Source of the DNA: a virus
Length of the DNA: 64,000 bases
Virus genome (UHGV): UHGV-0039337
Direction: 5' to 3' (one strand)
The translations under genes and the position numbers were made by a program. Shown piece after piece: positions 136-43,851 of this stretch (the first letter of the stretch is position 1; every line of letters starts with the position of its first letter). A model generated the notes under the pieces. The model did no database searches. It had not been told where the DNA came from and saw only the letters and a program-made list of their open reading frames with translations.

Positions 136-167
136 TGGGTCAATAAATTATTGACCCATTTATTGTG
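136..167 (+). terminator. Rho-independent terminator
   Basis: Perfect 10-bp inverted repeat tgggtcaata-aat-tattgaccca, followed by a T-rich tract tttattgtg. Confidence 0.7.
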
Positions 168-194
168 TAATAATATTTTGAAGGTGGTGAGCTA

Positions 195-3590: not shown

Positions 3591-6500
3591 ATGCCAATTA
3601 AGAAAAAAATAAATGGTAGATGGGTCAATGTTACTGGTTCATCTACCAGTACTAATAATACTAAAGCAATCAATATTGGTATCACAGATTCATTAGGATT
3701 TTATGATACTGACAATGTGGAAGGCGCATTAGCAGAAATAGGTAATGATTTAAAAAATACTAATGCTAATATAGAAAAGGTAGCAGCAGAGCTCAAAGAC
3801 CATAAACAAAATCATCCAGGTGGAAGTGGCAGTAGTGGAGGAGCTACCTTACCTACAATAACTTCTGATTTTAAAACAACAACTTCAGATGGCAAATCGA
3901 ATATAGAAATTCCTATATTTTTTACTTCTCCTTCTTTAGGTGATGGTACTGCATATATTCTTGTTAAGAATGTAGAAATAGCTACACAACAAATACAACA
4001 AGGAAATAACACTATTATTGTGCCACCTATTGGAGCTGGTAAAAATATAAATATATCATTATATGTTAAAGATAGAGCAGGACTTATTTCTAATCAATTA
4101 ACGTGGTTAATTACTGCTGGCGGTATTGAGATGACAATAATTACTGATACAAAGGCAGATTACGATATAAATAACAGAATAGTTATATCTTATACTATAA
4201 GCTGTATTTCTAACGAAGATATATATGCTCACTTTGAAATAGATGGAAAAGATAATCAAGTTAAATCTATTAACGGATACAATAGCTATCAGTTAACTGG
4301 ATTAACTGTAGGTGTTCATAAGATTTCCTACTGGGCAGAATCTGGTGATTATAAAACCACTAGTAAATCTTTTAACTTAATAATTGTAAATGAAGATACA
4401 TTAATAGTATCTACTGAATTTGATTCAGATAAAGAATATGAAAGCGGTATACCTATTAGCATACCTTACAGAGTTTCTATAACTAAAGACGAAGACTTTA
4501 CTGTTAAAATGTATATAGACGGTAATTTAGATAAAACTATAGTTACTAGACCTACAAGTTTATATTGGTCTATAACTTCATTAGATATTGGCAATCATAC
4601 ATTGAAAATAGAAGCTATTAATGATTCGTTAAATCTTAGCAACTCTATAGAATTTGCATGTCATGTTATTGAAGGTGAATATACTAGAGTGCAGCCTGTA
4701 ATGGATGCTTCTTTACTGTGCTGGTTTGATGCCACAGACAAAACTAATAATGATAGCGATAGAGATGTATGGACAGATAAAATATTAGGTAATAAGGGTT
4801 ATTTACATAATTTTAACTATGGTTCTAACGGATGGATAACAAACGATTCTACTCATACTTCTGAACTAGTAATGGATGGTACATGTTATGTTGAAATAGA
4901 CATGACACCTTTTAAAGATAATTTTAAAAACGGTGGTACTATAGAATTGGTATTTAAAGTTAGAGATGTTGGAAATGTTGATGCAAGAGTTTTAGATATA
5001 ACAGATACAATTTCTCCTTATAAAGGCATTTATATAGACACACGTGATGCATATTTAGCAACTGAAGCAAGAACGACAACTGCCTCTATAGGTGAAGATG
5101 AGTATATACATGTTATGTATGAAATAGATAGAACTAATAAATATGCACATGTAATAGTAAATGGAGTAATTACTGGTTCATGTAAACTTAGTGATAGTGG
5201 TATAGGTACATCTGCTGTATTAGAATCTATAGCGCATACTCAAAAGATTTATCTTAATAGTCAAAAAGGCACAGATTTATTTGGTTCATGTGAAATTAAA
5301 CATTTTAGAATATATGATAGAGCATTAAGTTTTGATGAAATACTACAAAACTATTTATCTACTATTGAAGACATAAAAGTTCAAAAATCTAAAGTTGATT
5401 TTAATGATCCACTTAAGAATATAATGCCAATAATGAATATAACATGCGATCCTGAACTATTTTCTATAATGACAGATGTTAATCAAATAGAAGTTGCTAT
5501 GACTTATACATCTCCTAATGCAGATTTGTATGGACAAACATTGACAACAGCTACTAAGTGTTTAATGTATTGGCAAGGTACGTCTTCAAAAGGTTATAAT
5601 ATACATAACTATAATTTATATCTAAGAGATGACAATAGACAACCTATAGCTTATAGTCCATATCCTAATTGTATTCCTCAATCATTATTTTGCTTAAAAG
5701 CAAATTTAATGGAATCTACAAATGCTCATAACGTAGGTCTTGCAGGCTATGTTAGAAAATATTTATATACTCATAATAATCCGGCGCAAGATGCAGATCC
5801 ACGTGCATCTAGAGTTATTCAGGGATTTCCTTTCTTGTTATATATAAATGGTGAATTAGCTGGCGTATATGATTTTAATTTAGATAGATATTCGTACACA
5901 GCATTTGGCTATGATTTACCAGCTCATAAAAATAAATGCAAAGTATATGAAATATCTGCCAATACAAACAAAACTGCAGGAGCATTTATACCATGGAGTG
6001 CAGATACAGGAGTAGATGAATGGACATGGTATAAAAATGACTTTGGTGGTATATATCCAGAATCTATACAAAACTCTGTTAATGATGATTTTACTGAATT
6101 GAAAAACTTAATTAAGTTTGTACATGATTCAAATGATGAAAAATTTGTTACTGATTTTGAAACATATTTTGATAAAGAATCAGTTATCAGATATTACTTA
6201 TTTGTAATGGTTTTAGGCCTTGTTGACTCATTAGGTAAGAATGCTAAACTTGTTACTTATGATGGTGTCAAATGGTATTTTGAGTTTTATGATATGGATA
6301 CAGCCATGGGTCTAGATAATACTGGTGCAGTTAAATTTGATGTTGATATAGAAATGAGTATGGGCAAATTCAATACTGCAGAATCTACACTATGGGTAAG
6401 ATTAGATAGATTATTTCATGACGATATAGTTAATGAATATAACATGATGAGAAATCAAAACTTAACAGCTGAAAAAATATATGAGTGTATATTCACTGAC

Positions 6501-9500
6501 CAAATAGATAAAATACCTGAAAGTCAATATAATCTTAGTACTCAAAAGAAATATCTTGACACAGGTGAATATATTATGATGTCTAATGGTAACAGATATT
6601 ATGGACTTAAACGTTGGATAAAAGACAGAATTTTATATTGCGATACTTTATTTAATTACACGCCTTCTATTTCAGATTTTATTACAATACGTTCAGGTAT
6701 AACTGGAGAAGCTTATATTGATATCGAAACTTATTCTCCTATGTATTTGACTGTTAGATGGCGTAATGTAATTGACGGAACAGCTGACCAAAAACTTAAG
6801 ATAGGAAGAAATCAAAAAGTTAGATTCCAAGCTGAAGGTTTAAATATACCTTCAAACAAAGACCAAGAAATTATAATTTATGGAGCTAAACATATAAAAA
6901 GCTTTGGTCAATTAGACGGATTAATTCCTATGTATTTATATTTAAATAACGCTACAAAATTAACTAATGTAGAATGCCCGAATGATTCAGAATTATTAGT
7001 TGCTGAAATAGCTAATTGTAGTTATCTACAAAAGGTAGATTTTAGTGGCTGTAGTAGTTTAGGTACATTAGAAAAATATCAAGTTCTCGATGTTAGCGGA
7101 TGTAATAACTTAAGATATTTAAATGCATATGGTACGGTGTTAACGTCTATCAGCACTAATCAATCTGGTGGAAACTTAGTTGAAATGTATGTGCCTAAGA
7201 CATTACAAACATTATCATTGCAAAATCAATATAGTTTAAAAGTTATTGGTATACCTGGTGCGAGTACTTTAGAAAGCACTAAGCTATATGATTTAAAACA
7301 AAACGCTAGTAATATATCAAGCTTTACTCTTATCAATTGTCCTTTAGTTGAAAGATTAACTTATGCTTCAGATTTTACAGTAAACAGTAATTTCTTTGAT
7401 AATTTTACAAATGAACGTAGATCAGCAGAACTTAATTATTTAACTTATACTAAAAATGAGTGGAAACGTTTAATGTATTGGGGAAATGGTTTAGCTAACT
7501 GTTATAATATCAACATAGAAAACAGTTGTCATAATATACCTAGTATGAGCTTTAGAGGTATAAGTAATTTACAGAGTTTGAAACTTAGAGCAATGCCTGG
7601 ATTAAAAACTCTAATGCTTGGAGCTAACTGTTGTGGATACAGATATAATAATGATCCTACTTATGAATCTAATAAATATGATACAGTTGGAGAATTTGAT
7701 TGGGATACATTAAGTATAATAGATTGTCCTAATATAGAAGAATTTAGAATACATGAAATGTATCCATATAATTGGAATGAAGGTTCTAGTGGTAACTTAA
7801 CATATTTTACCTTTAAACCTGGAACAGAATCTATTAACTTAGCTGCTAAATTTCCTAACTTAAAAATATTTGAGTGTAATTGTGCTACACAAAATATACA
7901 TCAAATAATACTTCCTCAATCATTAAAAACTATTATGACTTGTGCATGGAATAATAGACATGATGAGGGTTTTCCTAATGAAGTTAAGATAGAACAATTT
8001 AATATAGATAGTATCTATTTTGAAGGAGAGCATGAAGAAAGCTATACTGGTATAGATTTAGGAAACCACGCGTTACAAAATGTATGTATAATTGCTCCTT
8101 ATGCTTCAGAGTTAATAGGAGTTAATATCACAAATACACATGTAAATCCTATATTTAATGATTTAAAAGAAGCAGATAATGAAAATAGACCATTTGTTAC
8201 TCCTAACGGTAGGATAGATGTATCTAAATTTAAATGGAAAAATATATCTGACTGGTTTGCGTATATAGATTTTACTAAGGGAAAATGTGAAGTTATAACT
8301 CCAACTAACTGGAAAACATTCTTGGTAGGTATACAAAAGGCTAGTAGAATGTTTTATCATTGTACAAATCCTGATTTTACTTGGGAATTTGCTATGGAAT
8401 TCTTTTCTAAGATAAATACCTATTCTGATTTAAGTTATATGTATCAATATGCACAATTAGCAGATCAAGCTGATTTTGATACTGCTGCTGTAGTAATGGA
8501 AAACAAATATAATATAGGCGGATATAACTATAATATAAAACCTTTTCTAGGAACTAATCTTAAATTCGTTAAATCATTTACTTTAACAGCATGTGATGGT
8601 GCATATGCTACATTTAGTGGATGCAGCAGTTTAATTAAAGTAGGAGATTGTAAATTTACAGGATCTAGATCTAGTACATGGGGAATAAGTTATTTATTTA
8701 ATAACTGTATTGCATTAGAAGAAGTAGGAAATATAACTTCTTATGCTAATAAAAATAGTAGTTCTACTATACCAATGGATAATACATTTGAAGGTTGTAA
8801 TAAGTTAAAGAAAATAGGCACATTAGATATATCAGTTAGCAGTATGAACTGTGCTTACTATGATTGTTCTGTATTGGAAGACAATGGATTAAGTTTACCT
8901 TATATGGGAAATTGTGTAGATGTAAGAAATGCATTCTTTGGATGTTATACTTTAACTGCTATTAATTTTGAAACACTTGAAAAGGTTATATATGCTGATG
9001 CATTCTTGCGTAATTGCTATGGATTGTTATCAATACATTTACCAAGCATCAATCGTGATCATCCATTACAAGAATTCTCTAGTGCATTTTCTGGATGTAC
9101 TGCATTAAAGACTATAACTATAGAAGGAGACACATTACCTATAGGATTAAGAAATATGAGCTATGCTTATTCTAATTGTCCATCATTAACTAACGTAATA
9201 CCAGTTCCTTCAGATTTTGTAAATGATGTAGACATGAGTGGATGTTGTAGTCGTTGTAGTTCATTAACAGATGATGCTATATATAAAGAAATACCATTTA
9301 GAGTTGTTAATACCAATTATATGTATGAACGTTGCAATAGTTTAATTTCTCCAACAGTTAATTTATTATGTGACAATGTAACTTCAAAACAAATGTTTAG
9401 ATATTGTGAAAATATGACTAGTTTAACAGTCAATTATAATGGACGTTTATTGCGTGATACTACTTTCTTTGCAGAATATTGCAACAGATTACAAACCGTT

Positions 9501-10040
9501 AATTTTAAATTCCCTAGCGCACTTGTAATGCATGAATACTATGGAACTGGAGTTACTTATTATAATATGTTCCAATATTGTGGTAGTTTATCTATAGTAA
9601 ATCTTAACATGTCTAAATTAGCAGATACTAATTCTAAAGCAGATTTTGGTAGCATGTTCTATGAAGATAAATATATTACAGAAATTCATGGATTAGATTT
9701 TGCTTATCTTAAAAAACCTATACGTAATTTTACTTCTAGTGGTCAAAGTCCTTACGATTGGCATGACACTTCTATTACATATGGTGGTACATATGAAAAC
9801 TTAACAACTTTAGATGTTACAGGTAAATTAACAACAAGCTATAACTTTAAAAATATTGCTACCATGGTTCATACTAAAGTTATTTTACGACACTTAGATA
9901 AAGTAACAAATGAAACATTAGGATTGACATATAATATAGTTGATGCCATAGATGATGAAAAAACAGAATCAGTAGATCAAGAATTAAAAGAATTAGCTAA
10001 TACAGCATTAAGCAATGGTTGGTCATTCATTATAGTATAA
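3591..10040 (+). CDS. 2149-aa multidomain giant protein: tandem Ig-like repeats, LamG (concanavalin-A-like lectin) domain, CotH-like domain and BspA-type leucine-rich repeat region
   Basis: RBS ttaggagttgatt. The LamG signature is the closing motif IKHFRIYDRALSFDEILQNY (~aa 570). The CotH-like motif YYLFVMVLGLVDSLGKNAKLVTYDGVKWYFEFYDMDTAMG (~aa 870-900) matches the CotH W..IPWDxD..G core. The BspA-type LRRs show repeated F.GC.sL..I..v.. units (FSGCSSLIKVG, FEGCNKLKKIG, FFGCYTLTAINF, FSGCTALKTITI, YSNCPSLTNVI, FQYCGSLSIVNL) from ~aa 1100-1950. Confidence 0.85.
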   Translation: MPIKKKINGRWVNVTGSSTSTNNTKAINIGITDSLGFYDTDNVEGALAEIGNDLKNTNANIEKVAAELKDHKQNHPGGSGSSGGATLPTITSDFKTTTSDGKSNIEIPIFFTSPSLGDGTAYILVKNVEIATQQIQQGNNTIIVPPIGAGKNINISLYVKDRAGLISNQLTWLITAGGIEMTIITDTKADYDINNRIVISYTISCISNEDIYAHFEIDGKDNQVKSINGYNSYQLTGLTVGVHKISYWAESGDYKTTSKSFNLIIVNEDTLIVSTEFDSDKEYESGIPISIPYRVSITKDEDFTVKMYIDGNLDKTIVTRPTSLYWSITSLDIGNHTLKIEAINDSLNLSNSIEFACHVIEGEYTRVQPVMDASLLCWFDATDKTNNDSDRDVWTDKILGNKGYLHNFNYGSNGWITNDSTHTSELVMDGTCYVEIDMTPFKDNFKNGGTIELVFKVRDVGNVDARVLDITDTISPYKGIYIDTRDAYLATEARTTTASIGEDEYIHVMYEIDRTNKYAHVIVNGVITGSCKLSDSGIGTSAVLESIAHTQKIYLNSQKGTDLFGSCEIKHFRIYDRALSFDEILQNYLSTIEDIKVQKSKVDFNDPLKNIMPIMNITCDPELFSIMTDVNQIEVAMTYTSPNADLYGQTLTTATKCLMYWQGTSSKGYNIHNYNLYLRDDNRQPIAYSPYPNCIPQSLFCLKANLMESTNAHNVGLAGYVRKYLYTHNNPAQDADPRASRVIQGFPFLLYINGELAGVYDFNLDRYSYTAFGYDLPAHKNKCKVYEISANTNKTAGAFIPWSADTGVDEWTWYKNDFGGIYPESIQNSVNDDFTELKNLIKFVHDSNDEKFVTDFETYFDKESVIRYYLFVMVLGLVDSLGKNAKLVTYDGVKWYFEFYDMDTAMGLDNTGAVKFDVDIEMSMGKFNTAESTLWVRLDRLFHDDIVNEYNMMRNQNLTAEKIYECIFTDQIDKIPESQYNLSTQKKYLDTGEYIMMSNGNRYYGLKRWIKDRILYCDTLFNYTPSISDFITIRSGITGEAYIDIETYSPMYLTVRWRNVIDGTADQKLKIGRNQKVRFQAEGLNIPSNKDQEIIIYGAKHIKSFGQLDGLIPMYLYLNNATKLTNVECPNDSELLVAEIANCSYLQKVDFSGCSSLGTLEKYQVLDVSGCNNLRYLNAYGTVLTSISTNQSGGNLVEMYVPKTLQTLSLQNQYSLKVIGIPGASTLESTKLYDLKQNASNISSFTLINCPLVERLTYASDFTVNSNFFDNFTNERRSAELNYLTYTKNEWKRLMYWGNGLANCYNINIENSCHNIPSMSFRGISNLQSLKLRAMPGLKTLMLGANCCGYRYNNDPTYESNKYDTVGEFDWDTLSIIDCPNIEEFRIHEMYPYNWNEGSSGNLTYFTFKPGTESINLAAKFPNLKIFECNCATQNIHQIILPQSLKTIMTCAWNNRHDEGFPNEVKIEQFNIDSIYFEGEHEESYTGIDLGNHALQNVCIIAPYASELIGVNITNTHVNPIFNDLKEADNENRPFVTPNGRIDVSKFKWKNISDWFAYIDFTKGKCEVITPTNWKTFLVGIQKASRMFYHCTNPDFTWEFAMEFFSKINTYSDLSYMYQYAQLADQADFDTAAVVMENKYNIGGYNYNIKPFLGTNLKFVKSFTLTACDGAYATFSGCSSLIKVGDCKFTGSRSSTWGISYLFNNCIALEEVGNITSYANKNSSSTIPMDNTFEGCNKLKKIGTLDISVSSMNCAYYDCSVLEDNGLSLPYMGNCVDVRNAFFGCYTLTAINFETLEKVIYADAFLRNCYGLLSIHLPSINRDHPLQEFSSAFSGCTALKTITIEGDTLPIGLRNMSYAYSNCPSLTNVIPVPSDFVNDVDMSGCCSRCSSLTDDAIYKEIPFRVVNTNYMYERCNSLISPTVNLLCDNVTSKQMFRYCENMTSLTVNYNGRLLRDTTFFAEYCNRLQTVNFKFPSALVMHEYYGTGVTYYNMFQYCGSLSIVNLNMSKLADTNSKADFGSMFYEDKYITEIHGLDFAYLKKPIRNFTSSGQSPYDWHDTSITYGGTYENLTTLDVTGKLTTSYNFKNIATMVHTKVILRHLDKVTNETLGLTYNIVDAIDDEKTESVDQELKELANTALSNGWSFIIV

Positions 10041-10051
10041 GGAGTGATTAT

Positions 10052-10324
10052 ATGAGAGTATATAAAAACAGTTTAGGTATAACATGTATAGAACCAGCTG
10101 ATGGATATTTGCTAAGTAAGAACGGACAAACTTTTAAAAAAGCATGCTTAGGTAAAAATGATAGAGCTGAGTTATATACAGAAATAAAAAATGAAGATGT
10201 TGGACATGAAATTCAAAATACTACCTTTGATGTATCTGATAACATGATATTAATAAGTCCAAACGGAAAACGATTTAAATTAGTCGTCAATAACGATGGC
10301 TCATTAAGTACTAAAGAGATATAG
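10052..10324 (+). CDS. Small hypothetical protein (90 aa)
   Basis: ATG at 10052 preceded by RBS taaggagtgatt. The ORF track start at 10019 lacks an RBS and overlaps the preceding gene. Confidence 0.6.
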   Translation: MRVYKNSLGITCIEPADGYLLSKNGQTFKKACLGKNDRAELYTEIKNEDVGHEIQNTTFDVSDNMILISPNGKRFKLVVNNDGSLSTKEI

Positions 10325-10330
10325 TATACA

Positions 10331-10357
10331 GGGCCGGATTAATTCCGGTCCTTTTAT
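10331..10357 (+). terminator. Rho-independent terminator
   Basis: gggccgga-ttaa-ttccggtcc forms an 8-bp stem with one G.U wobble, followed by ttttat. Confidence 0.75.
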
Positions 10358-10409
10358 ATGTATTTGTATTTTACGTAATTCTATTATAAATAATAATTTA
10401 AAGGAGGTC

Positions 10410-10535
10410 ATTACACCTACTAATAATTATAATCCAGCTACCAAGAAATATGTTGACGACAAATCAGTAATAATCGATACAGATTTAAATACTGCTATAG
10501 CTAATATATTTGGATCAGATTATTCTATCTTATAA
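10410..10535 (+). pseudogene. Decayed N-terminal fragment of a tail-fibre gene (no start codon)
   Basis: The open frame reads ITPTNNYNPATKKYVDDKSVIIDTDLNTAIANIFGSDYSIL*. ATKKYVDD matches ATKKYVDN in the 15229 fibre and the KAYVD fibre motif. It sits after an RBS-like aaaggaggtc but begins at ATT. Confidence 0.5.
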
Positions 10536-10544
10536 TAATATAAA

Positions 10545-10576
10545 TAGAGCCGTTTTATTCGGCTCTTTTTTATGTA
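10545..10576 (+). terminator. Rho-independent terminator
   Basis: agagccg-ttttatt-cggctct is a perfect 7-bp stem, followed by tttttat. Confidence 0.75.
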
Positions 10577-10798
10577 ATTTTATTATAGAGATTAAAGTCT
10601 AAAGGAGGTCGTATGAAATTGCTGCTAATGACGACATAATAAAATCGTTATTAGATATTTTGGGATAAAAGAGATGCAAATATAATAGGTGCATCTATCG
10701 TTATTCAATTTACAGAAGTTACTATTTAAACTACAGATATTGAAGTAACTTCTATGTTAGATAAAATATTTACATAAATAATAAAAAGGAGTGCTAAA

Positions 10799-12265
10799 AT
10801 GGCTAATACTAAATTAATAAATTGCGATCAACTTCAAATTTCATTACAGAAAGTTAAAGATTATGTAGATGGTAAGTTTGCAGTAGCTGATCATAATCAC
10901 AATAATGTTTATTATACGCAAACACAAATAAACAATAAAATAAATAATATTAATTCTGCAATAGGCGGTAAAGCTAATGCAACACATTCACATAAATCAA
11001 GTGATGTTACAACCATGGGAGGATATTCTAAACCAGATTCTACTGGTGCTATAGCTACTACTGATACTTTAAATGCTGCAATTGGTAAATTAGAAACAGC
11101 ATTAGATGGTAAATCTAGCTCTAGTCATAATCATAATGGGGTTTATTTACCTATAAATGGTACAGCAGCTAGCGCTACTAAATTAGCTACAGCTAGAACT
11201 ATAAATGGTATAGAATTTGACGGTACTAAAGCTATAACTATAACAGCTAACCCTAATGCTCATAATCAGGCTTCAAATACAATAAATGCAATGACAGGAT
11301 ATGCTATAGCTAAAGCTTCTGCAGCAATAGCTACTACAGATAGTTTAAATACTGCTATAGGAAAACTAGAATATGCAATAGGACAAAAACAAGCTAGTGG
11401 TTCTTATGCTTCAGCCAATCATAATCATGATAACAGATATTATACAGAAACAGAAATAAATACTAAAATATCTGATTTACAAACTGCTGATACAAATAAT
11501 TTAGCTAATGCTAAAGCATATACTGATGCTGCTATTGATAAAATAACCGGAGAAGGCGTATCGGAAGCTCTTGATACATTAAAAGAATTAGGAGATGCAT
11601 TAAATAACGATGCTAATTTTGCAAGTACTATGACTACTGCATTAGCTGGTAAAGCAGATTCAAACCATATCCATGATGTTGCTACAACTACTACTGATGG
11701 ATTTATGTCATCTGATATGGTAACTAAATTAAATGGCATAGCTAATAATGCTAACAATTATGTGCATCCAACTACTGTTGGTAATAAACATATTCCTGCT
11801 GGTGGAGCTACAGGACAATTTTTAGGTTATTCAGCTGCTGGCACTGCTCAATGGGTAGCTAATCCTAATACAGATAGCAAAGTAAATACTGCAGCAGATA
11901 CAACTAGTACTAAATTATATTTAACTGGTGCTACTGGAGCTACTACTGCTGGATTGAAATATAGTTCATCTATTTTCTTTAGTGCTAAAGATGGTACCAT
12001 AACTGCTTCAGGGTTTAATGGCAAAGCTACTAGTGCCGGTTCTGCCGATACTGCTTCTGCTTGTTCTGGTAATGCAGCATCTGCTAGTAAAGTAAATAGT
12101 TCATTAACTATACAATTTAATGGTGTTAATAATAAAACATTTAATGGTAGTTCAGCACAAACAGTTAATATAACTCCTGCTTCAATAGGAGCTGCTACAA
12201 CTGCCGATACTGCTAAAGCAACAGACAAAGAAGTAAGCGATATGCTAACTACTATTTTTGGATAA
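10799..12265 (+). CDS. Tail fibre protein (488 aa) with phage tail-fibre repeats containing HxH motifs
   Basis: Strong RBS aaaaggagtgct. The N-terminus MANTKLINCDQLQISLQKVKDYVDGK is shared with the next gene. It has repeated ~35-aa units with DHNHN, THSHK, SHNHNG, NHNHD, NHIHD and TINGIEFDGTKAITIT. Composition is Ala/Thr/Asn-rich, typical of fibre shafts. Confidence 0.85.
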   Translation: MANTKLINCDQLQISLQKVKDYVDGKFAVADHNHNNVYYTQTQINNKINNINSAIGGKANATHSHKSSDVTTMGGYSKPDSTGAIATTDTLNAAIGKLETALDGKSSSSHNHNGVYLPINGTAASATKLATARTINGIEFDGTKAITITANPNAHNQASNTINAMTGYAIAKASAAIATTDSLNTAIGKLEYAIGQKQASGSYASANHNHDNRYYTETEINTKISDLQTADTNNLANAKAYTDAAIDKITGEGVSEALDTLKELGDALNNDANFASTMTTALAGKADSNHIHDVATTTTDGFMSSDMVTKLNGIANNANNYVHPTTVGNKHIPAGGATGQFLGYSAAGTAQWVANPNTDSKVNTAADTTSTKLYLTGATGATTAGLKYSSSIFFSAKDGTITASGFNGKATSAGSADTASACSGNAASASKVNSSLTIQFNGVNNKTFNGSSAQTVNITPASIGAATTADTAKATDKEVSDMLTTIFG

Positions 12266-12320
12266 AATATTTTATTTATGAAGCGTATATTAAAATTATA
12301 AAAAAGAAAGGAGATATTAG

Positions 12321-14939
12321 ATGGCAAATAATAAAAATATTACATTTGATCAACTTCAAACTTCTCTTAAAAAAGTAAAATCAGCTATCGATGGTAAAGC
12401 AAATACCAGTCATGGAAACCATGTTCCTACTACTGGTACAACCGATAACGCTACATATTTAAGAAATGATAATTCATGGCATAAAATAGTGCCTTCAGAT
12501 ATAGGTGCAGCCCCTTCTGTTCATGGGACACATGTCACATATTCTACAACTGCTCCGTCAGCTCCTGGAACTGCTTCTGCAGGTACTGCTGATAATGTAT
12601 CAAGAGGAGATCACGTACATCCTCTTCAAACTACAATAAGCGGTAATGCCGGTAGTGCTACTAAACTTGCCAATGCTCGTAATTTAACTGTAGGAAATAC
12701 AAAAAAATCATTTAATGGTACAGCTGATGTATCATGGAGTTTAAATGAAATAGGAGCAGCTGCTTCTGGTCATACTCATAATTGTTTTGCAATTAAAGGC
12801 GAAAATACTATATCCGGTATTGCAAATGATACTACAGAAAAATGGAAAGATCATGGTAATTCTGTACACTGGTATACAAAAGCAAATCAAATAACAGGTC
12901 AGCCTTCTCCATATGGTTTCCTTACTAACTGGGCTTCAGGTGGAGACGTTCATCAATTATGGATGACACAAAGTTCTGGAAACATGTTTCATAGAGGTGG
13001 TAATAATGATGGATGGTATGGTACTTGGAGAACAATATTAGATGAAAATAATTTTACTGCTTATTCTCCTACGTTAAGTGGTGGAGGAGCAATGGGTATA
13101 TGGGCAATTAGCGTTACTGGTAACGCAGGTACAGCTACTAAACTTGAAGAATCAAAAACTATAAATGGAACTAGTTTTGATGGTTCTAGTAATATAACTA
13201 CTGCTAATTGGGGTACTGCTAGAACTATTACTATAGGAAATAAAAGCAAATCAGTTAACGGTTCTGCAAATGTATCATGGACATTAGATGAAATAGGTGC
13301 TTTTCCGTTAACTGGTGGTATGTTGAGTAGTGGAGTAGGTATTGTAAATACTTATGGCGAAGCATGGTTTGATATTGGAGCCAATGATACATATGTATAT
13401 AATAAAAATAGCAATAAATCATTACAATTAAAGCATACTGGTGAATTAGTTTATGACGAAACATTTATTTTAGCTAATGAAGACGAAGGCGGTAAAATAA
13501 CTATAAAATCTACTGCTAATAATAATAATACAACAAATTATGGTGTTGGCGGTAGTGATATATATATAGATAACGTTAAAACAGGTAAAGCTTTGCAATT
13601 AAAAAATGACGGAACATTAAGATATAATGATAATATAATTTTAGATTCTAGCAACTATTCTTCTTATACTACTAGAAGATGTTGCGTAGTAGGACAAACA
13701 GGAAACTCTACAAGTAAACCTTATTATCTATTTGCTTATATAATTGCAAATGGATCTAACATGGATAGAGAAATAACATTTAAAGTAAGCACAGGATATG
13801 ATAATATTAAAGCTTCTGGTATATTAAGAGCACATTTAAGAACTAATTCAAATAATTATGTACAGAATGCACAATTATATTGGGAATATGCTAATACTGG
13901 TATAGAAGAAAGTAATTTTATCTTAGCATATGGTACAGGAGTGAATCCTACAGTTGAATTATGGGTTAAATGTGATGTAGCTTGGATGATGTATCATTTT
14001 GAAGTAATACAAGAAATTGCAAGAGACGAACATTATTTAGATCCTAAATGGATGTTGCAAACTTGTTGTCAAGAAGGTTATGCTGATTCTCCTACTAGTG
14101 GATATACTCAAGTGCCTAGTACAATTTTACAATTAAAAAATAGTGCACAATATGCATCAGCACTAAATGATGTTCAATATGCATCAGCATTGGATAATGC
14201 TCAATATACATCAACATTAGATAATGATATACAAATAGAAATAAATCCTTCATCAGGTAATGATAATGTTGAATTAGCAGATGGTGCAGTATATAAAACA
14301 ATTGCAGGAGTACTAGATGCATTACCTAAATTTTTAAACGGTAAACGAGTAAATATCTGGATGCGTGCTGATATAACTGAAAATGCAGACTTTCAAAATT
14401 ATACTAGTGGACAAATAAAATTTTACCTAGATGGACACACATTATACGGATATATTAGAAACTATATGAGTAGTGTTAAAGTGACTGTATATGGTGGATG
14501 GCCAGGTACCGAAAAAGGACATGTTGGAATAATTCACCCACCTGTAGGATGCGCAGTTGCCGGAAGAACAGGTAGCTTTATTTCACAAGAAAACTCCTCA
14601 ATGGATGCTTATAGCGTAAAAATATATGGTAGTGATAATCTGAATTCTTCTGGAACTTCCAATACTGTTGGTGTTATAGGAGACTCGTTTGCTACAATCT
14701 ATACTGAAAATGTTCAGTTTGTAAATTGTGATATAGGATTTAGGGGAAGTACCGGTGCTAGAATACATGATGCGAATTCAAGCGGTGTATGTAGTCAATA
14801 TGGTTATCAAGTTACAAGCGGTGCTTTCATAACAATTGATAACGCTGCCCACTGCGGTGGCAAAACTGCAAATACTGACCAAACATTGCCAGGGCAAATA
14901 ATAGCACACGCTAGCGCTACATATGCAAGCGGTAATTAA
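12321..14939 (+). CDS. Tail fibre protein (872 aa) with a paralogous N-terminus, a different distal domain and HxH repeats
   Basis: RBS aaaggagatatt. The N-terminus is MANNKNITFDQLQTSLKKVKSAIDGK. It has GHTHN, GDHVHP and RTINGTSFDGSSNIT repeats. The C-terminal ~250 aa are Gly/Ser-rich and beta-helix-like. Confidence 0.85.
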   Translation: MANNKNITFDQLQTSLKKVKSAIDGKANTSHGNHVPTTGTTDNATYLRNDNSWHKIVPSDIGAAPSVHGTHVTYSTTAPSAPGTASAGTADNVSRGDHVHPLQTTISGNAGSATKLANARNLTVGNTKKSFNGTADVSWSLNEIGAAASGHTHNCFAIKGENTISGIANDTTEKWKDHGNSVHWYTKANQITGQPSPYGFLTNWASGGDVHQLWMTQSSGNMFHRGGNNDGWYGTWRTILDENNFTAYSPTLSGGGAMGIWAISVTGNAGTATKLEESKTINGTSFDGSSNITTANWGTARTITIGNKSKSVNGSANVSWTLDEIGAFPLTGGMLSSGVGIVNTYGEAWFDIGANDTYVYNKNSNKSLQLKHTGELVYDETFILANEDEGGKITIKSTANNNNTTNYGVGGSDIYIDNVKTGKALQLKNDGTLRYNDNIILDSSNYSSYTTRRCCVVGQTGNSTSKPYYLFAYIIANGSNMDREITFKVSTGYDNIKASGILRAHLRTNSNNYVQNAQLYWEYANTGIEESNFILAYGTGVNPTVELWVKCDVAWMMYHFEVIQEIARDEHYLDPKWMLQTCCQEGYADSPTSGYTQVPSTILQLKNSAQYASALNDVQYASALDNAQYTSTLDNDIQIEINPSSGNDNVELADGAVYKTIAGVLDALPKFLNGKRVNIWMRADITENADFQNYTSGQIKFYLDGHTLYGYIRNYMSSVKVTVYGGWPGTEKGHVGIIHPPVGCAVAGRTGSFISQENSSMDAYSVKIYGSDNLNSSGTSNTVGVIGDSFATIYTENVQFVNCDIGFRGSTGARIHDANSSGVCSQYGYQVTSGAFITIDNAAHCGGKTANTDQTLPGQIIAHASATYASGN
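14145..14225 (+). repeat. Three tandem 27-bp units encoding AQYASALND / VQYASALDN / AQYTSTLDN
   Basis: The units gcacaatatgcatcagcactaaatgat, gttcaatatgcatcagcattggataat and gctcaatatacatcaacattagataat sit head to tail inside the 12321 fibre gene. Confidence 0.8.
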
Positions 14940-15154
14940 ACGACCGATAGTACTTCAGCCTAATACTTATTGCGACTAAGATTACTATAATTAAATCTAA
15001 TAATGGTATTATAAAAGGAGTTTTAATATTCAATCTACCTATATAATGCAGCAAACTATGCAGTATATTCTGGTAGCTTAACAATGAAAATTACTTACAC
15101 AGAATAATGTTTAGTTAAATTAACTAAGCAAAGTAATAATATATATGAATGCAG

Positions 15155-15189
15155 TAATAGGATTAGTCAAATATTAGCTAGTCCTATTA
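15155..15189 (+). promoter_or_regulatory. 12-bp-stem palindrome/hairpin immediately upstream of the 15229 RBS
   Basis: taataggattag-(11 nt loop)-ctagtcctatta gives 12 pairs including one G.U, followed by a T-rich tract. It lies in a 289-bp non-coding gap, the largest in the fibre cassette. Confidence 0.55.
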
Positions 15190-15228
15190 TTATGTATATA
15201 TTATTTACAGAGAAAAGGAGAAATATAA

Positions 15229-15767
15229 TGGCAAATTTAACATTTCTAGAAGCATTAAATAAATCATTAATTGCTACTAAAAAATATGTTGATAACTCAG
15301 TAGCTGGAATAGTGGATTCAGCGCCAGAAACTTTAAATACTTTAAAAGAATTATCTACAGCTTTAGGAGATGATCCTAATTTTGCTACTACTGTTGCAAC
15401 TAATATAGGAAAAAAAGTAGATAAAATAGAAGGGAAAACATTAACAGCTAATGATTTAACAAATGAATTAAAAGCTAATTACGATGCTGCATATGCTCAT
15501 AGTCAAGTGGCACATGCTCCAGCTGATGCACAAAAAAATAGTGATATAACTAAAGATGAAATAGAAGCTAAATTAACTGGTGATATAAGTTCTCATACAC
15601 ATAGCCAGTATTTAACAGAACATCAAAATTTGGATGAATATGCTCCTAAGAAATATGTGGATGATAAAATGGCAAATTTAAGTATAGTAAAAATATCTAA
15701 AACTGATTTTGAAGCATTAACTACAAAAGATGCTAATACTTTATATTTAGTATTAGAAGATTCATAA
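15229..15767 (+). CDS. Short tail-fibre-like protein (179 aa) with the shared N-terminal anchor motif
   Basis: ATG at 15229 with RBS aaaaggagaaatata. The track start at 15192 reads through the RBS. The N-terminus MANLTFLEALNKSLIATKKYVDNSVAG carries the KKYVD motif. SHTHSQY is a fibre-repeat HxH motif. Confidence 0.8.
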
Positions 15768-15792
15768 AACCGAATTTAAAGGAGAGGTTTGA

Positions 15793-17295
15793 ATGGCAAC
15801 ATTAAAAATAAAACCGTCATCTTACACTACAAACAAATGGAAAAATATAGAAAAAATGTATGATAATGATACCAGTACATACGCATCATGCACTGTTAAC
15901 TTGACTACTAATGATCTATCATGTGATCTTCATATAACTAAACCTTCCCTACCCGATTATTACATTATTAATAACATAAAATTACATTTAGTAGCAAGAG
16001 GTAAAACAATGACAAATGATGGAGGTCATTGGCTTAGAATATATATAAATGAAACTAATCAAATATCAGATTTACATTTAGGATTTTGTGATGGTATTGA
16101 ATATGATATACCATTAACAATAGATCAATATAATCAAATGAATGAAAATAATAGTATGAAATTAACAGCACATAGGGCCAACTCTAGAACTAACATTAAT
16201 ATTTATATATTTGATTTTTATATTGAAATAGATTATACCGATTTAAGTCAAACTATGATAACTGATACAAACGACGATATTTGGATTTATAAAAATGGAA
16301 CAATTACTATAGATATTAATGCTTATCCTAAAACATTAATAAATTGGTCAGTTGATAATCCAAATATAATAGATTTACAACTTATATCCAATGGATTTTC
16401 ATGCAATATAACAGGTAAAGCTGTAGGAGAGTGTATTGTAACTGCAGTTCATTCAGAAAATAGTGAATGTAAAACTCAATTCAAGATTAATGTTAATAAA
16501 TTAATTGAAAATAATTATTGCTCTTTTATATTAAATAACGTTACTTTGAATCATATTATGATAGGGGAACAAAATGTTGCTTTTGTTTATCTTGGAAACA
16601 CTAAAGTATTTGAATATAAAACTCATATACCATACAGTGAGTTTAAATTTAACACTTTAACAAAAGACTTTACCATGCCTTTATACACTAGATTAACTTC
16701 TCAAACATATACAAAAGCATATATAGATCGTCTTGATGGACATATACGTAATTATGCTGCAGCTCCTCCTGGCGAACTTGAGGAAGACGATAGTTCAATA
16801 GCAACAGTAGATTATATACCAGTATATGATAATGAAGAAATAATATTTAATTATCCATCGACTGAATATGGTATAGGATTATGTAGCTATACTGGAATTC
16901 ATGAATATTATAAAACATGGTTTGGTCCTGATAAAGGTTGGGGTAATTACAATATGAGTGATTCTGGTGGAGACGTAACCGGTACTACAACGACATGTAT
17001 TATTCCTGAAGGAGCTAAATACATAAGATGGTGTGGCAACAATATGACTGGAGAACAAATATTTGCTAGACGATATAGCGTACAAAATATCGATTTAATA
17101 CCTTATCCTCCAAATAGTACATATACTTTTAATACAGAATATAAATCTAGCGATGAGTCTGTAGCTGTAATTGAAGGTTCAATGATACGTGCTAAATCTG
17201 CTGGTAATTGCATTATAACTGTTACGCATGGTCAAATTAGTACAAATATTAATTTAACTATAATAGATAATAGCAATGATTTCACAACATATTAA
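15793..17295 (+). CDS. 500-aa protein with two bacterial Ig-like (Big_2-type) domains
   Basis: RBS aaaggagaggtttga. The Big_2-like segments are WSVDNPNIIDLQ...GKAVGECIVTAVHSEN and YKSSDESVAVIEGSMIRAKSAGNCIITVTHGQ. Confidence 0.75.
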   Translation: MATLKIKPSSYTTNKWKNIEKMYDNDTSTYASCTVNLTTNDLSCDLHITKPSLPDYYIINNIKLHLVARGKTMTNDGGHWLRIYINETNQISDLHLGFCDGIEYDIPLTIDQYNQMNENNSMKLTAHRANSRTNINIYIFDFYIEIDYTDLSQTMITDTNDDIWIYKNGTITIDINAYPKTLINWSVDNPNIIDLQLISNGFSCNITGKAVGECIVTAVHSENSECKTQFKINVNKLIENNYCSFILNNVTLNHIMIGEQNVAFVYLGNTKVFEYKTHIPYSEFKFNTLTKDFTMPLYTRLTSQTYTKAYIDRLDGHIRNYAAAPPGELEEDDSSIATVDYIPVYDNEEIIFNYPSTEYGIGLCSYTGIHEYYKTWFGPDKGWGNYNMSDSGGDVTGTTTTCIIPEGAKYIRWCGNNMTGEQIFARRYSVQNIDLIPYPPNSTYTFNTEYKSSDESVAVIEGSMIRAKSAGNCIITVTHGQISTNINLTIIDNSNDFTTY

Positions 17296-17380
17296 TAAAA
17301 ATATAAAAATACAGTTATAAATAATATTTATTTGAAAATAATTAAAAGACAATGTTATGTCAGTTAAGTATTATATTTTA

Positions 17381-17420
17381 ATACACCTTCTTATAATTTA
17401 ATAGGGGGGTGTATTTTATT
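17381..17420 (+). terminator. Putative rho-independent terminator
   Basis: atacaccttc ... gggggtgtat is a 10-bp stem with two G.U pairs and a 14-nt loop, followed by ttttatt. Confidence 0.5.
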
Positions 17421-17520
17421 ATGATTTTTTACAATAATAATAAAGAAGAGGCAGAAAAAAATATGGAACAAGTTTATGAATTACTAGCAGAAATTTTAAT
17501 AGAAAGCGAGAGTGATAATA

Positions 17521-18906
17521 ATGAAAAATCAATTACTTAATATAGCTTATTTGCGTTGTAGTACAGATGACCAAGATGTAGCACATCAATTATCAAGTAT
17601 AGAAAAATTCTGCGAAAGTCAAAATATAGTTATAGACAAAGTAATTAAAGACGAAGGCGTAAGTGCTTATAGTAAAAGTGCATATGAAAGAAAAGGCTTT
17701 AGTGAAGTAATACATTTAGTAGAAGAAAACAAGGTTAATAAACTTATATTATTCGAATCTTCTAGATTATCTAGAAATTTTCATGAAGGACAAAATTTAA
17801 TTAAATTCTTTAGTGACAAAAGAGTGGAGATATATAGTGTAGTAGATGGTGGTATAATTAATGCTACTGAAGTAGATGAATTATTAAATAGTATTAGGTA
17901 TTGGCTTAATCAAAAAGCCAGTAAAGAAACAAGTGATAGAATTAAAAGTCAAAAAAAGTTAGCTAAATCCAAAGGAGAATTTCTGGGACATCCTGTTCCA
18001 CTAGGATTTAAAATAGAAAACAAGCATGAAATTATAGACGAAGATAAGCGTAATTTTATTATTGAATTATTTAATACTTATATTAATCAAAGTTCTAGAG
18101 CATGTATAGATTTATTAAAAACTATAGGAATCAAAGCTAATCATCAAACGCTATTGCAAAGGATAAAAAATGATAAATATATACAAATAGTAGGAAAAGA
18201 TACTTTTAACAAAGCCCAAGAAACCATACAATCTAGAAGATGTAATAAAGGAAATAATACCAGAACTTTAAACAGGAGTAATATTTTATATGAGGGTTTA
18301 TTATACCATCTATGTGGTAGCAAACTTACAATAGATAAAAATAGAAAAGGTGAACCTGTTTTTAGATGTAGAAGATGCAAACATAATTTAGATATAAATA
18401 TTAAAAAATCTTTTATTGGTAATCCTTTAATGAACAATATTAACAAAGATATGTATGAAATAATCAATAATTTAGATAGGAATAAATTAGAAGAGAAGTA
18501 TAAAGAACGTAATAACAAACAACGCTCAATAATATCTTACAAAATACACGAACTAAAAGCATCTATTAAAAGCAAGAAAAAATCTTATGCTTTAGCTAAT
18601 AATAAATTAGAAAAAATATTAATATCTGATATGGATGATTCACTTATATCTACTGTGGCTAATACTGTTAACAATATAAAAAAAGAGATAGAAGAATTAG
18701 AAAAGGAATTAAATATTGAGCAAGAAAAAATAGATACTATAGACGAACAAGCGAAATTTAATGCTGGTTTAATTAATAAAATAATCAACTTAAAAGATGT
18801 GTATATAAACGGAAGTGACAAGAAAAAGAAGGCTATACTTAACTTTATGATAGATAAAGTAATAGTTTATGACATTGATAAGTTTGATATTTTTTTAAAA
18901 ATATGA
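17521..18906 (+). CDS. Large serine recombinase (resolvase/invertase catalytic domain plus recombinase and zinc-ribbon C-terminal domains)
   Basis: N-terminal IAYLRCSTDDQ carries the catalytic Ser. RLSRN and the resolvase fold motifs are present. The C-terminus has the Cys cluster CGSKLT...FRCRRCKHN and a long coiled coil, typical of phiC31/TnpX-type large serine recombinases. ATG at 17521 is preferred over the track's GTG at 17512. Confidence 0.85.
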   Translation: MKNQLLNIAYLRCSTDDQDVAHQLSSIEKFCESQNIVIDKVIKDEGVSAYSKSAYERKGFSEVIHLVEENKVNKLILFESSRLSRNFHEGQNLIKFFSDKRVEIYSVVDGGIINATEVDELLNSIRYWLNQKASKETSDRIKSQKKLAKSKGEFLGHPVPLGFKIENKHEIIDEDKRNFIIELFNTYINQSSRACIDLLKTIGIKANHQTLLQRIKNDKYIQIVGKDTFNKAQETIQSRRCNKGNNTRTLNRSNILYEGLLYHLCGSKLTIDKNRKGEPVFRCRRCKHNLDINIKKSFIGNPLMNNINKDMYEIINNLDRNKLEEKYKERNNKQRSIISYKIHELKASIKSKKKSYALANNKLEKILISDMDDSLISTVANTVNNIKKEIEELEKELNIEQEKIDTIDEQAKFNAGLINKIINLKDVYINGSDKKKKAILNFMIDKVIVYDIDKFDIFLKI

Positions 18907-18984
18907 TGGTTGAGCATTATAATAGTTGTTGCATTTATTATACTTAACCACAAAGGTAATATTTTATAGAAAGGAGCTGATGCA

Positions 18985-20934
18985 ATGGCTAAAAAAGAGC
19001 AGTTTGATGCTTTACAAATAGTAAATGACAGTCTAAAACTTTATGTAAAAGAAAAAATAGCAGAAGCGAAAATATCAGGTGGAGATGTTGATCTTAGTAA
19101 TTATGTTACTAAAATTACAGGTAATGCTAGTCAAATTACTTTTAATGATGGTCAATCTTTTCAAGATAAATTAAATAATGGCACTTTAAAAGGTGATAAA
19201 GGAGACAAAGGTAATGATGGTGCAATTGGACCTCAAGGACCTGCTGGTGAAAAAGGTGACCAAGGTGAAGTAGGGCCTCAAGGACCTGCCGGAGAAAAAG
19301 GAGATACTGGCCCACAAGGACTAGCAGGTGTTGATGGTACACCTGGAGCTAAAGGTGATAAAGGTGAAATTGGAGAACAGGGACCAAAAGGAGATACTGG
19401 ACCTGCCGGTAAAGATGGAGCTGATGGATTAACTACAGCTGTATCTGTTAATGGTGTTACTTATAACCATATTAATGGAGTAATTACATTGCCTAACTAT
19501 CTTAGTCAAATATATAAAACTCCTAAATTTATTACAACAACTACTACTTCATACAAAGATTCGTCAGGTAATACAGGTTTTACAATAGATTTAGGTATTC
19601 CTACGACTTCTGTATTATCTATAGATAGTATAGTTGTTACTGCTAAATATCAAAATACTGATTTAAAAATAACTCATGTAAAATTAGAAAACAATTCAAC
19701 TAATTGGAATTTATTGGCAACAGTAGAGGGATATGATGCTAATCAAAAATATACTGTATCAGTAGCCATATTTAATTATGGAGAAGAATTAACTGTAGCG
19801 GAAGCATTAAATAAATTATTTGCTAAAGTTTATTTAGGTTCTATATCTCCCGCTGGCTCTGGTAGTGGAGAAACTACTACTGAAACATTAACTATAAGCA
19901 ATATAGCAAATATAACACAAAATATTAAAACATCATTCTATATAGAATATAGCACTAATATAGCGGTGACAAAACATGAAGTATCGTGGGATGGTGGAGA
20001 CACATTCTATGATAAAACTGGTGACGTTACTTCTATTGGTAATAATCATAAGTTTTTACATGACGATAAAGCAAATGCTGGAACATATAACATGGCTATA
20101 AGAGTTACAACTGCTAAAGGTACAACTAAGACAAGTAATATATTTACTGTTACTTTAGTAGATAATAGTGAAGATGAATATGCTATGTCTTGTACTTCTG
20201 AATATATTCTAGACAAGATGTATCCAATGCCACAAAACCATGAAGCAGTACCGAGTGGTGTTACTGATACATGGGCTACTCAATCTCGTTGGGAGAATCA
20301 ACAAAGACCTACTGCCGCAGCACATAACTGTGGTCAAGCGAATTGTCCAGGAGCAGTACAATTTAAAGCTTTAGGTGCTTGGGCTAATGTATATAGAGTA
20401 AAAGATTCAGGATTTAGTTCTAATACTGGAGTTGAAATGAGAAACATAAAAGTTTACGGATGGTATAATGGTCAATGGGAAAAAGTACAAGATATGGCTG
20501 TGCCTGATGGTAATTTTTACACTGAAAGTTTCTCTGGAGATAGTAATCAATACTTTAGTGACAGTATTAAAACTACAAGCACTAGTAAAACTATAATTTT
20601 AAGAGAAAAAAATAAGGTTAATGGTGAAAACTGCATGTACCACCCATTCTCAAAAATAAAGAATTTTGATGTAAAATATGAATATGTATATACTTGCATA
20701 GATTTACGTAAGGTCAAATGGGATGAAAGTGGAGTAGATGATAGAGATAGTTCTCATTACTGTGCAAGTTGTGGTGGTGACTGGTGGTTAGCTGAAGGGT
20801 TAACATTTGATAGTAGTTGGCAACATAACAAAGGTGTAGCCCAACCTAAGATAATAGAAATTACAAATAAGTGGAGAAGATTCTCTATGACTACTGTTCC
20901 ACAAGACTGGACAAGTGGGTTTCCCACCAAATAG
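18985..20934 (+). CDS. Collagen-like tail fibre protein (649 aa)
   Basis: RBS gaaaggagctgatgca. The N-terminal [16 protein letters not shown] anchor motif is present. About 78 aa are uninterrupted G-X-Y repeats. It is followed by an [13 protein letters not shown]...VSWDGG domain that is paralogous to a segment of the 21692 protein. Confidence 0.85.
19192..19427 (+). repeat. Collagen-like G-X-Y triplet repeat coding region
   Basis: [79 protein letters not shown]. Confidence 0.9.
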
Positions 20935-21685
20935 TGATAGTGAAAATGAAACTGTAACAGTTGATGCTCTAGAAATATTGCCTTCATTTACTTATGCTGA
21001 TATTCCAGAAGAAGGAACTAAAAATTTATATGTAAAATTATCTAGTAAACCAGATTCAGATATTATAGTAAATACTACTTCATCATCACAATATTTATCT
21101 TGTTCACCTTCTTCATTGACTTTTACAAATACAAATTGGAGCGTATCACAAAAAATAGCTATAAGCTCATTAAAAGATAATAATGAATCTGATGATACAT
21201 ATAATATAACATTGTCATCAAATGATTTATCTTCTAAAGTTTCAATAGAAGTTACTGATGCTTCTAATAGCAATTATGAAATGTTATATGATAATGGTGT
21301 ATTATCTCATGGTACTTTGACTTTAAACAATGCTACAAATTATGGAAGCTATATTACAATAACTCAAAACGAAAATTCTTCTGTTATGATAAGTGGTTAC
21401 CCTATATCATTAAATAAAAATGATAAGGTTTATTTACAGTTAGGATTAGACACATCAGACCCAGCTTCTACATATTCTATAAAAATAGGTCAACTTGGAG
21501 ACTCATCAGCTAATGACATAAGTAATAGTAATATGCTTACAGAGCAACAAATATCAAACGCATTAGATGGTGATAAAATATTAACATATTGGACTGTAGC
21601 AAATGCAGTATCAAATATTGATTTAACCATTACATCATATTATGCTAGAGTTAAAATTTATAAGATATATATTGAAAGGGGGTAG
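20915..21685 (+). CDS. 256-aa lectin-like module, possibly a +1-frame continuation of the 18985 product or an independent or pseudogenised ORF
   Basis: GTG start with no RBS, overlapping the last 20 nt of the upstream gene in the +1 frame. Its C-terminal domain ([17 protein letters not shown]...[15 protein letters not shown]) is paralogous to aa ~750-880 of the 21692 protein, where it is fused in a single polypeptide. Confidence 0.5.
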
Positions 21686-21691
21686 TAATTT

Positions 21692-43809: not shown

Positions 43810-43851
43810 CGTAATAATCTAATAGATGTAATTAAGAGAGGTGAAAAATAG

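Follow-up and report, generated by a model that had tools for sequence, protein, structure and literature searches.

The 474 bases that separate a conserved 90-aa gene from the first surviving tail-fibre gene of this phage (positions 10325-10798 of the window, by which we mean the whole 64,000-nucleotide stretch of DNA analysed) are very probably a deletion scar, in which three genes of the tail-fibre locus have been reduced to pseudogenes while the punctuation around them was retained. Rather than as a 474-bp "non-coding gap", the stretch should be annotated as three pseudogene remnants and two terminators, and two fibre-type genes and a small partner gene, still present in related phages, appear to have been lost from this lineage. 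Three independent metagenome assemblies agree over the gap at 100% identity, which excludes an assembly artefact.

The source is an uncultivated low-GC phage of ~270 kb known from gut and wastewater metagenomes; contigs of 270-271 kb assembled from human-gut samples carry sequence identical to the window. Its ribosome-binding sites (AAAGGAGG) indicate that the host is probably a Firmicute. The window has a GC content of about 29%, and all of its ORFs of at least 100 aa lie on the + strand, barring ones nested antisense within larger + strand ORFs. PHROGs matches show it to be rich in tail and fibre genes, and the nearest cultured relatives are Bacillus phage tail proteins with only about 24% identity. 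The features of the gap and of its two borders are collected in Table 1.

Table 1. Features identified in and around the gap, in window coordinates; terminators and remnants are predictions from sequence.
Feature	Position	Strand	Basis or remark
Giant CotH/LRR gene	3591-10040	+	ends upstream of the 90-aa gene
Conserved 90-aa gene adjoining the gap	10052-10324	+	called in identical contigs; 43 homologue clusters
Predicted intrinsic terminator 1	10330-10352	+	9 pairs, 6 GC, then TTTT (terminator scan)
Spacer 1, AT-rich, with repeat core 10369-10396	10353-10398	+	presumed promoter/5'-UTR copy 1
SD 1, TAAAGGAGGTC, orphaned (no start codon after it)	10399-10409	+	identical 11-mer at 10600-10610
Remnant 1, last 39 codons and stop of a YadA-head-like accessory fibre gene	10416-10535	+	tblastn
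Predicted intrinsic terminator 2	10546-10566	+	7 pairs, 5 GC, then TTTTTT (terminator scan)
Spacer 2 and SD 2	10567-10610	+	conserved region upstream of the small gene/fibre operon
Mini-ORF of 8 codons, MKLLLMTT and stop	10613-10639	+	ATG at 10613, TAA ending at 10639
Remnant 2, last ~17 codons and stop of the 45-68-aa small gene (EIAANDDIIKSLLDILG, then stop)	10615-10668	+	DNA colinearity
Degenerate SD and destroyed fibre A start	10669-10689	+	alignment with L040 and L042
Remnant 3, last ~30-33 codons and stop of a fibre A-type gene (IGASIVIQFTEVTI, stop, TTDIEVTSMLDKIFT, stop)	10685-10777	+	tblastn, DNA colinearity
SD AAAAAGGAG and 488-aa fibre B gene, first surviving fibre gene	10782-12265	+	67% to the second fibre of L042/L044

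The gap had been described as lying between the giant gene and the first intact fibre gene, and the upstream border has to be corrected: the giant gene ends at 10040, and it is the 90-aa gene that abuts the gap. A TTG-start ORF of 101 aa (10019-10324) that overlaps the end of the giant gene was rejected in favour of the 90-aa ATG ORF; an exact look-up of the 101-aa version returned nothing, and the 90-aa version matched. Homologues of the 90-aa gene (49-93% identity) lie invariably immediately downstream of the giant gene, and the C-terminus of the protein (SPNGKRFKLVVNNDGSLSTKEI) is kept across the 43 homologue clusters. It was through these homologues, in a large protein collection, that the relatives compared here (given as L numbers) were recovered. 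Other searches returned no orthologous locus from curated phage genomes, IMG/VR or JGI metagenomes. In a set of 50,697 phage records, neither megablast with 9800-11300 nor tblastn with the 101-aa ORF found a match and the 488-aa fibre gave domain-level matches only, and IMG/VR scans with the 101-aa ORF (10019-10321, containing the 90-aa gene) and the 488-aa protein found shared fibre repeats only.

The relatives share a conserved gene order, which runs from the giant CotH gene through the ~90-aa gene, an optional YadA-head-like fibre, the small gene of 45-68 aa and fibre A to fibres B and C, whereas the window passes from the 90-aa gene directly to fibre B. Distant relatives, in which the 90-aa gene is 49-70% identical at the amino acid level, always have the giant gene, the gene of ninety-odd residues, a terminator, a spacer with SD, the small gene and fibres, and the order from the ninety-odd-residue gene to the small gene to a fibre was found in 10 independent relatives, with or without an accessory fibre in between. 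That accessory YadA-head-like fibre has 194, 197 and 974 aa in L037, L049 and L052, respectively. Fibre A of L042 and L044 has 497-500 aa, starts with MAKLINLDQL and ends in the pattern QFE.AT.QATD.EVT.MLD.VF; in both genomes it is followed by an orthologue of the 488-aa gene of the window, and in L042 the 872-aa gene also has an orthologue next in line, 78% identical over the 96 aa that precede the contig end. Intact genes thus stand at the position of the gap in related genomes (L037, L040, L042, L044, L049 and L052), as the preliminary description had proposed to check, and all of the more distant relatives recovered have an intact small gene and an intact fibre A.

Fibre B, where the surviving fibre genes begin, has tail-fibre PHROG matches; Pfam returned no family for the 488-aa protein, nor for its C-terminal 28 aa alone. 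Fibre N-termini are conserved across the locus (MANTKLINCDQL, MANNKNITFDQL and MAKLINLDQL). At the other end, all fibre paralogues and the small gene finish in a C-terminal tag of ~15 residues, A-T-[DE]-x-E-V-x-x-M-L-x-x-[IV]-[FL], which is present at 12218-12265 of the window, in fibre genes of L042, L044, L037 and L046 and in the small genes of L037-L050, and which may serve as a signal for assembly or docking or act as a hotspot of recombination. Inside fibre B the region of an LNTAI(G) motif is duplicated (11015-11105 versus 11291-11381, 74%). A 17-nt exact repeat, TTTAAATACTGCTATAG, is shared by remnant 1 (10484-10500) and the interior of fibre B (11344-11360); it is the only noteworthy exact repeat of the gap and represents the internal LNTAI(G) motif, not a 5' end.

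The first remnant is read in a start-less frame, PTNNYNPATKKYVDDKSVIIDTDLNTAIANIFGSDYSIL, that closes with a stop codon. With the window as database, tblastn aligned 10416-10532 with residues 156-194 of the 194-aa accessory fibre of L037 (64% identity, E=7e-12), the match running to a stop codon that both have in common, and the remnant is 94% identical to the 3' two-thirds of a 47-aa ORF in the closely related L033. We therefore read it as the C-terminus of an accessory fibre whose start codon and body would have been deleted. Unit 1 had been said to run into a start-less fibre N-terminus; the missing start is borne out, but what survives corresponds to the last 39 residues of the 194-aa protein and not to its beginning. 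The junction motif PTExxDLxTKKYVDD is general across the protein family of this remnant, with 1808 database matches at E<=0.001. An hmmscan of the 44-aa remnant 1 peptide did not find Phage_tail_C (PF24243), even at E<=10; that family matches the 179-aa gene at 15228-15767 (3.6e-8), which has only the KKYVDD motif in common with the remnant.

Downstream of the second terminator, the mini-ORF reported in the preliminary description is present, and two further remnants that it overlooked overlap or follow it. The ATG of the mini-ORF aligns with the ATG of the 68-aa gene in L040 and L042, with the spacing from the SD down to 4 nt from 8, so that the mini-ORF would represent the start codon left over from the small gene, from which the reading frame runs into an out-of-frame remnant. 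This second remnant is separated from the frame of ATG 10613 by a frameshift. Its peptide matches residues 54-66 of the 68-aa L040 protein weakly (tblastn, E=0.2), and the DNA comparison is stronger: 10616-10695 is colinear with the 3' end of the L040 small gene, the following SD and the ATG of fibre A, at 69% identity (z=13.7; 0 of 300 shuffles reach the score). The small-gene family comprises 41 clusters. At the start of fibre A, relatives read AAGGAGAGGTAAATATAATATGGCT where the window reads AAAGAGATGCAAATATAATAGGTGC, and their ATGG has become AGG near 10687.

The third remnant is interrupted by an in-frame TAA at 10727-10729. Its translation (10685-10774) aligns without gaps to residues 471-500 of the 500-aa fibre A of L042, with 50% identity and the stop codons in register (tblastn, E=0.003), and to the 497-aa protein of L044 (E=0.004); at the DNA level, 10670-10815 is 65% identical to the stretch from the 3' end of fibre A to the SD and start of fibre B in L044 (z=10.6, 300 shuffles). 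It also resembles the C-terminus of fibre B itself (48%, ungapped), nearly as closely as that of fibre A, so it is its position and the colinearity of the flanking DNA that point to fibre A, and remnant 3 could instead be a partial duplicate of fibre B. A six-frame reading of the gap likewise shows remnants 2 and 3 as stop-ended peptides resembling the C-terminus of the 488-aa fibre (ATDKEVSDMLTTIFG, then stop). Pfam gave no useful match for the remnant peptides and no family in remnants 2 and 3. The remnants are marked as pseudogenes by two things together, their homology to genes that stand intact at the same place in relatives and their disabling lesions, namely no ATG after SD 1, a frameshift after ATG 10613, the change from ATGG to AGG and the TAA at 10727.

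The punctuation around the remnants falls into two nearly parallel units, as had been noted. Both hairpins are GC-rich stem-loops followed by a T-run, on the coding strand and downstream of a stop codon, and both are predicted to be intrinsic (Rho-independent) terminators. Their RNA folds reach -17.7 kcal/mol (z -4.8) for terminator 1 and -15.1 kcal/mol (z -5.8) for terminator 2, and in neither case was any of 200 shuffles as good; a scan of 9800-12500 found 4 terminator-like sites where 0.9 were expected. A hairpin occupies the position of terminator 1 in 8 relatives, and 3 of 7 pairs are kept through compensatory changes on both sides. Terminator 1 most likely ends the transcription unit of the giant and 90-aa genes. 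Terminator 2 would originally have belonged to the accessory fibre gene, and L050 and L052 have a second terminator at the equivalent position downstream of theirs. Beyond the hairpins, 10369-10396 and 10568-10595 form a direct repeat that is 82% identical at a distance of 199 nt, and SD 2 (10600-10610) is the same 11-mer as SD 1. The whole units are 67% identical over 76 columns (z=7.7; 0 of 300 shuffles reach the score).

The second unit is conserved beyond this phage. Its sequence (10543-10618) aligns at 73% identity with the DNA that precedes the 68-aa gene of L040 (z=24, 300 shuffles), and in a spacer core at 10572-10594 (ATGTAATTTTATTATAGAGATTA) 20-22 of 23 positions match relatives in which the neighbouring 90-aa gene has no more than 73-78% nucleotide identity. 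Conservation above that of the adjacent coding DNA suggests that the spacers act as a putative promoter or 5'-UTR, and spacer 2 with SD 2 is probably the working promoter/5'-UTR of the 488-aa fibre gene. We keep the promoter reading putative because the sigma-70 matches are weak (TTTACG-16-AATAAT at 10370-10397 agrees at 9 of 12 positions), because the motif is not enriched and because two look-alikes lie inside a gene. The core motif GTAATNNTNTNATAG has 10 matches in the 64 kb where 8.5 are expected. As a genome-wide promoter the spacer motif was rejected, the 20-mer with up to 3 mismatches having 6 matches, of which those at 54345 and 54444 fall within a coding region; our claim is therefore limited to the conservation of the spacer core across lineages. 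The exact 23-mer of spacer 2 had 0 matches in IMG/VR and JGI metagenomes.

Similar intergenic punctuation occurs at four other junctions of the window (138-194, 43781-43851, 50425-50483 and 62253-62321), where a hairpin is followed by a T-run, a (T/C)GT(G)TAAT-like sequence and an SD within ~25-45 nt; in the spacer at 50425-50483 no hairpin is evident in the printed sequence. This arrangement of hairpin, T-run, GTAAT and SD may be a common terminator/promoter arrangement in the phage.

Strains with about 95% identity to the window share remnants 2 and 3 with it and differ in unit 1, which was found in three states. In the window it holds the start-less fragment. L033-35 have at this place an intact 47-aa ORF (MTKYIDDKGLQQALEKTKAYVDDKSVIIDTDLNTAITNIFGSDYSIL, then stop; 8363-8506 in L033), whose ATG lies 8 nt downstream of the counterpart of SD 1 and which joins in frame the N-terminal ~24 residues of the 194-aa type to its last 23, at a duplicated TK(K/A)YVDD motif. 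In L032 unit 1 is absent. The locus is shorter there by exactly 199 bp, the period of the repeat, and at the junction, TTTTACGTAATT joined to TTATTATAGAG, spacer 1 passes into spacer 2, with the crossover within GTAATT of the spacer repeat; we infer the direction of this difference to be deletion and not insertion. Unit 1 of the window would be an independent deletion of the same ancestral gene, in which the C-terminal copy of the motif was kept and everything from the SD onward was lost. A parallel exists in a distant lineage, where the 974-aa accessory gene of L052 (3504-6428) is reduced in L050 and L051 to an in-frame ORF of 50 aa (8733-8885 in L050) made of its N- and C-terminal parts, followed by a second terminator, a spacer and an SD before the small gene. 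The mini-ORFs of the two lineages keep only the N-terminal ~25-30 and the C-terminal ~20 residues of the accessory fibre.

These comparisons suggest a history in which the ancestor carried, in order, the giant CotH gene, the ~90-aa gene, terminator 1, a spacer with SD, the accessory fibre, terminator 2, a second spacer with SD, the small gene and fibres A, B and C. Because the remnants are colinear with the locus of the relatives and each ends at the homologous stop codon, three separate internal deletions would account for ~1.4 kb of missing sequence, almost the whole of the accessory fibre gene, small gene and fibre A. Each would begin at or just past a ribosome-binding site or start codon and end 17-39 codons before the stop. 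Of the accessory fibre the SD and the final 39 codons would remain; of the small gene, the SD, the ATG and ~17 final codons that are out of frame; and of fibre A, a degenerate SD, a destroyed start and the final ~30-33 codons, so that two terminators, two spacers, three SDs and three 3' ends would be the survivors. Since no immediate ancestor with all three genes intact is among the relatives recovered, the deletion end-points and any microhomologies are reconstructed from relatives that are 65-78% identical. At present, terminator 1 would stop the upstream operon, as sequence and fold suggest; spacer 1, if it is a promoter, would yield a short dead transcript ending at terminator 2; and spacer 2 would drive fibre B, whose ~190-nt leader would consist of remnants 2 and 3. 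The similar terminator/spacer/SD units may serve as substrates for further recombination, as the loss of exactly the 199 bp between them in L032 would illustrate.

The preliminary description explained the two units by repeated insertion or deletion of a cassette through recombination between conserved 5' regions of fibre genes. Either a recent tandem duplication of a cassette or repeated insertion by such 5' recombination seems to us highly unlikely. The two units are significantly alike, in their spacer core as over their whole length, and fibre genes do share conserved N-termini, yet when the gap was aligned locally with six gene 5' regions (10799, 12321, 15228, 15793, 18985 and 21692), no match stood above shuffles, with the exception of a borderline 18/20 match at 15273 (a TKKYVD motif; 4 of 200 shuffles reach its score), and the parts of fibre genes that the gap resembles are 3' ends. 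The unit-to-unit similarity on which that account depended is thus real, but the similarity to fibre 5' ends comes down to this one borderline match. Further, the only mapped crossover, that of L032, used repeats in an intergenic spacer. The distant L050-L052 have the same layout of two terminators and two spacers around their own accessory gene, in unrelated sequence, so the layout tracks the accessory gene and is not a recent local duplication. Of the earlier account, a scar of deletion and recombination remains, backed by the intact genes in relatives and by L032, and repeated cassette insertion through fibre 5' ends finds no support.

Whether the short ORFs are themselves functional, the 8-codon one as a leader peptide or cis-regulatory RNA for fibre B and the mini N+C ORF as a plug or adaptor, has to be weighed against the deletion scar, and we give it a slim chance. 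Strong SDs precede both, in-frame N+C mini-ORFs arose twice independently (47 aa in L033-35, 50 aa in L050/51), and remnants 2 and 3 are kept in all four strain types. However, unit 1 is start-less in the window and missing from L032, and therefore dispensable within one population. The ATG of the 8-codon ORF is the orthologous start of the 68-aa gene put out of frame, with its distance from the SD shortened, and no Rfam family reached threshold in 10000-11000 (best 23.6 bits against gathering cut-offs of 38-70). Two in-frame products among three deletion derivatives of accessory genes are weak evidence of selection. A related idea, that the N+C mini-ORFs are selected "plug" proteins which fill a baseplate docking site when the receptor-binding body is dispensable, the tag being a shared assembly or docking signal, is one that we consider unlikely; if the docking tag were shared in this way, the disappearance of both the small gene and fibre A would mark them as a functional pair.

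That the remnants are silent donor cassettes in a programmed switch of fibre C-termini, whether through gene conversion or through site-specific recombination by the serine recombinase (17521-18906), is almost certainly wrong, for although all three carry fibre C-terminal sequence, remnants 2 and 3 have the C-terminal tag in common with fibre B and a large serine recombinase does sit inside the fibre cluster, the remnants span only 17-39 codons, contain stops and frameshifts and all lie on one strand, 9500-22000 contains no long inverted repeats, each remnant stands exactly where relatives have the matching intact gene, and the gap is invariant in the three assemblies. The recombinase (461 aa, with a Resolvase domain and an integrase PHROG match) lies 7 kb from the gap and is flanked by a 500-aa gene and a collagen-repeat fibre. 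An invertible segment was likewise rejected, since long inverted repeats are missing from 9500-22000 despite the recombinase. Invertase systems and shufflons (Mu Gin, P1 Cin, R64) have inverted sites around alternative, oppositely oriented fibre 3' segments and a small serine invertase beside them; the locus does not resemble these, its remnants all lying on the + strand, with no long inverted repeats in 9500-22000 and with a nearby recombinase of the large type.

Among described systems, the units most resemble the PeSLs of T4-type phages, in which an upstream stop codon is succeeded by a stem-loop terminator, a promoter, an SD and a start codon (Arbiol et al. 2010, PMC2839356; Comeau et al. 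2014, PMC4122927) and whose repeated copies surround dispensable genes and give rise to indels between closely related strains (PMC2839356, PMC4122927). PeSLs carry consensus sigma-70 early promoters, have demonstrated promoter and terminator activities, and number ~50 per genome, mostly in hyperplastic regions of early genes in T4-like phages of Gram-negative hosts (PMC2839356). The gap units may be composite intergenic elements of this sort, both having a stem-loop, an AT-rich spacer and an SD; they are repeated around non-essential genes in a plastic region, and recombination between neighbouring copies appears to have produced an indel in close strains (L032 versus the window, 199 bp). Unlike them, only two clearly related copies are present in the 64-kb window in place of many, they lie in a late (virion) module of an unrelated low-GC phage, and their putative promoter is a weak sigma-70-like match, while the core motif of the spacers is not enriched. 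We therefore regard the resemblance as functional only.

In T-even and other phages, recombination at conserved motifs reportedly swaps or deletes fibre segments (work attributed to Tetart et al. 1998 and Sandmeier 1994). The present locus is like such mosaic tail-fibre loci in that its fibre paralogues share an N-terminal anchor, TKKYVDD and a C-terminal tag, and in that one deletion falls exactly between motif copies (the 47-aa ORF of L033 versus the 194-aa gene). It differs in showing net gene loss with non-functional relics, with no adhesin exchange and no donor sequence identified. Relics of accessory genes left by internal deletion are also known from large phages, a spontaneous "ORFanage" deletion in a cyanophage reportedly being one example. 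As in such ordinary phage pseudogenes, accessory genes have been deleted here while flanking essential genes and signals stay; what sets the gap apart is that three adjacent genes each left a recognisable 3' stub and that intermediate states coexist in public metagenomes.

The gap is accordingly an instance of gene erosion of an ordinary, known kind, documented with unusual clarity in the hypervariable fibre locus of a new phage lineage. Start-less, 47-aa mini-ORF and unit-deleted states coexist in human-gut and wastewater metagenomes, an exceptionally full series of intermediates, N+C mini-ORFs recur, and the locus provides a clean example, outside the T4-like phages, of indel end-points that fall in repeated terminator/spacer/RBS cassettes. 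It has a bearing on annotation and on how large phages remodel their host-recognition apparatus and represents no new kind of system.

Two further observations concern the genes on either side. The giant CotH/LRR gene, which encodes 2148 aa in L051 (1925-8371), is split into ORFs of 907, 305 and 1242 aa in L050 (679-8371), a contig of 278.7 kb. Fibre C (12321-14939 in the window, 872 aa) has 872, 881, 871 and 885 aa among otherwise near-identical strains (also L029, L030, L032 and L033), and looks like a length-variable gene that probably determines host range.
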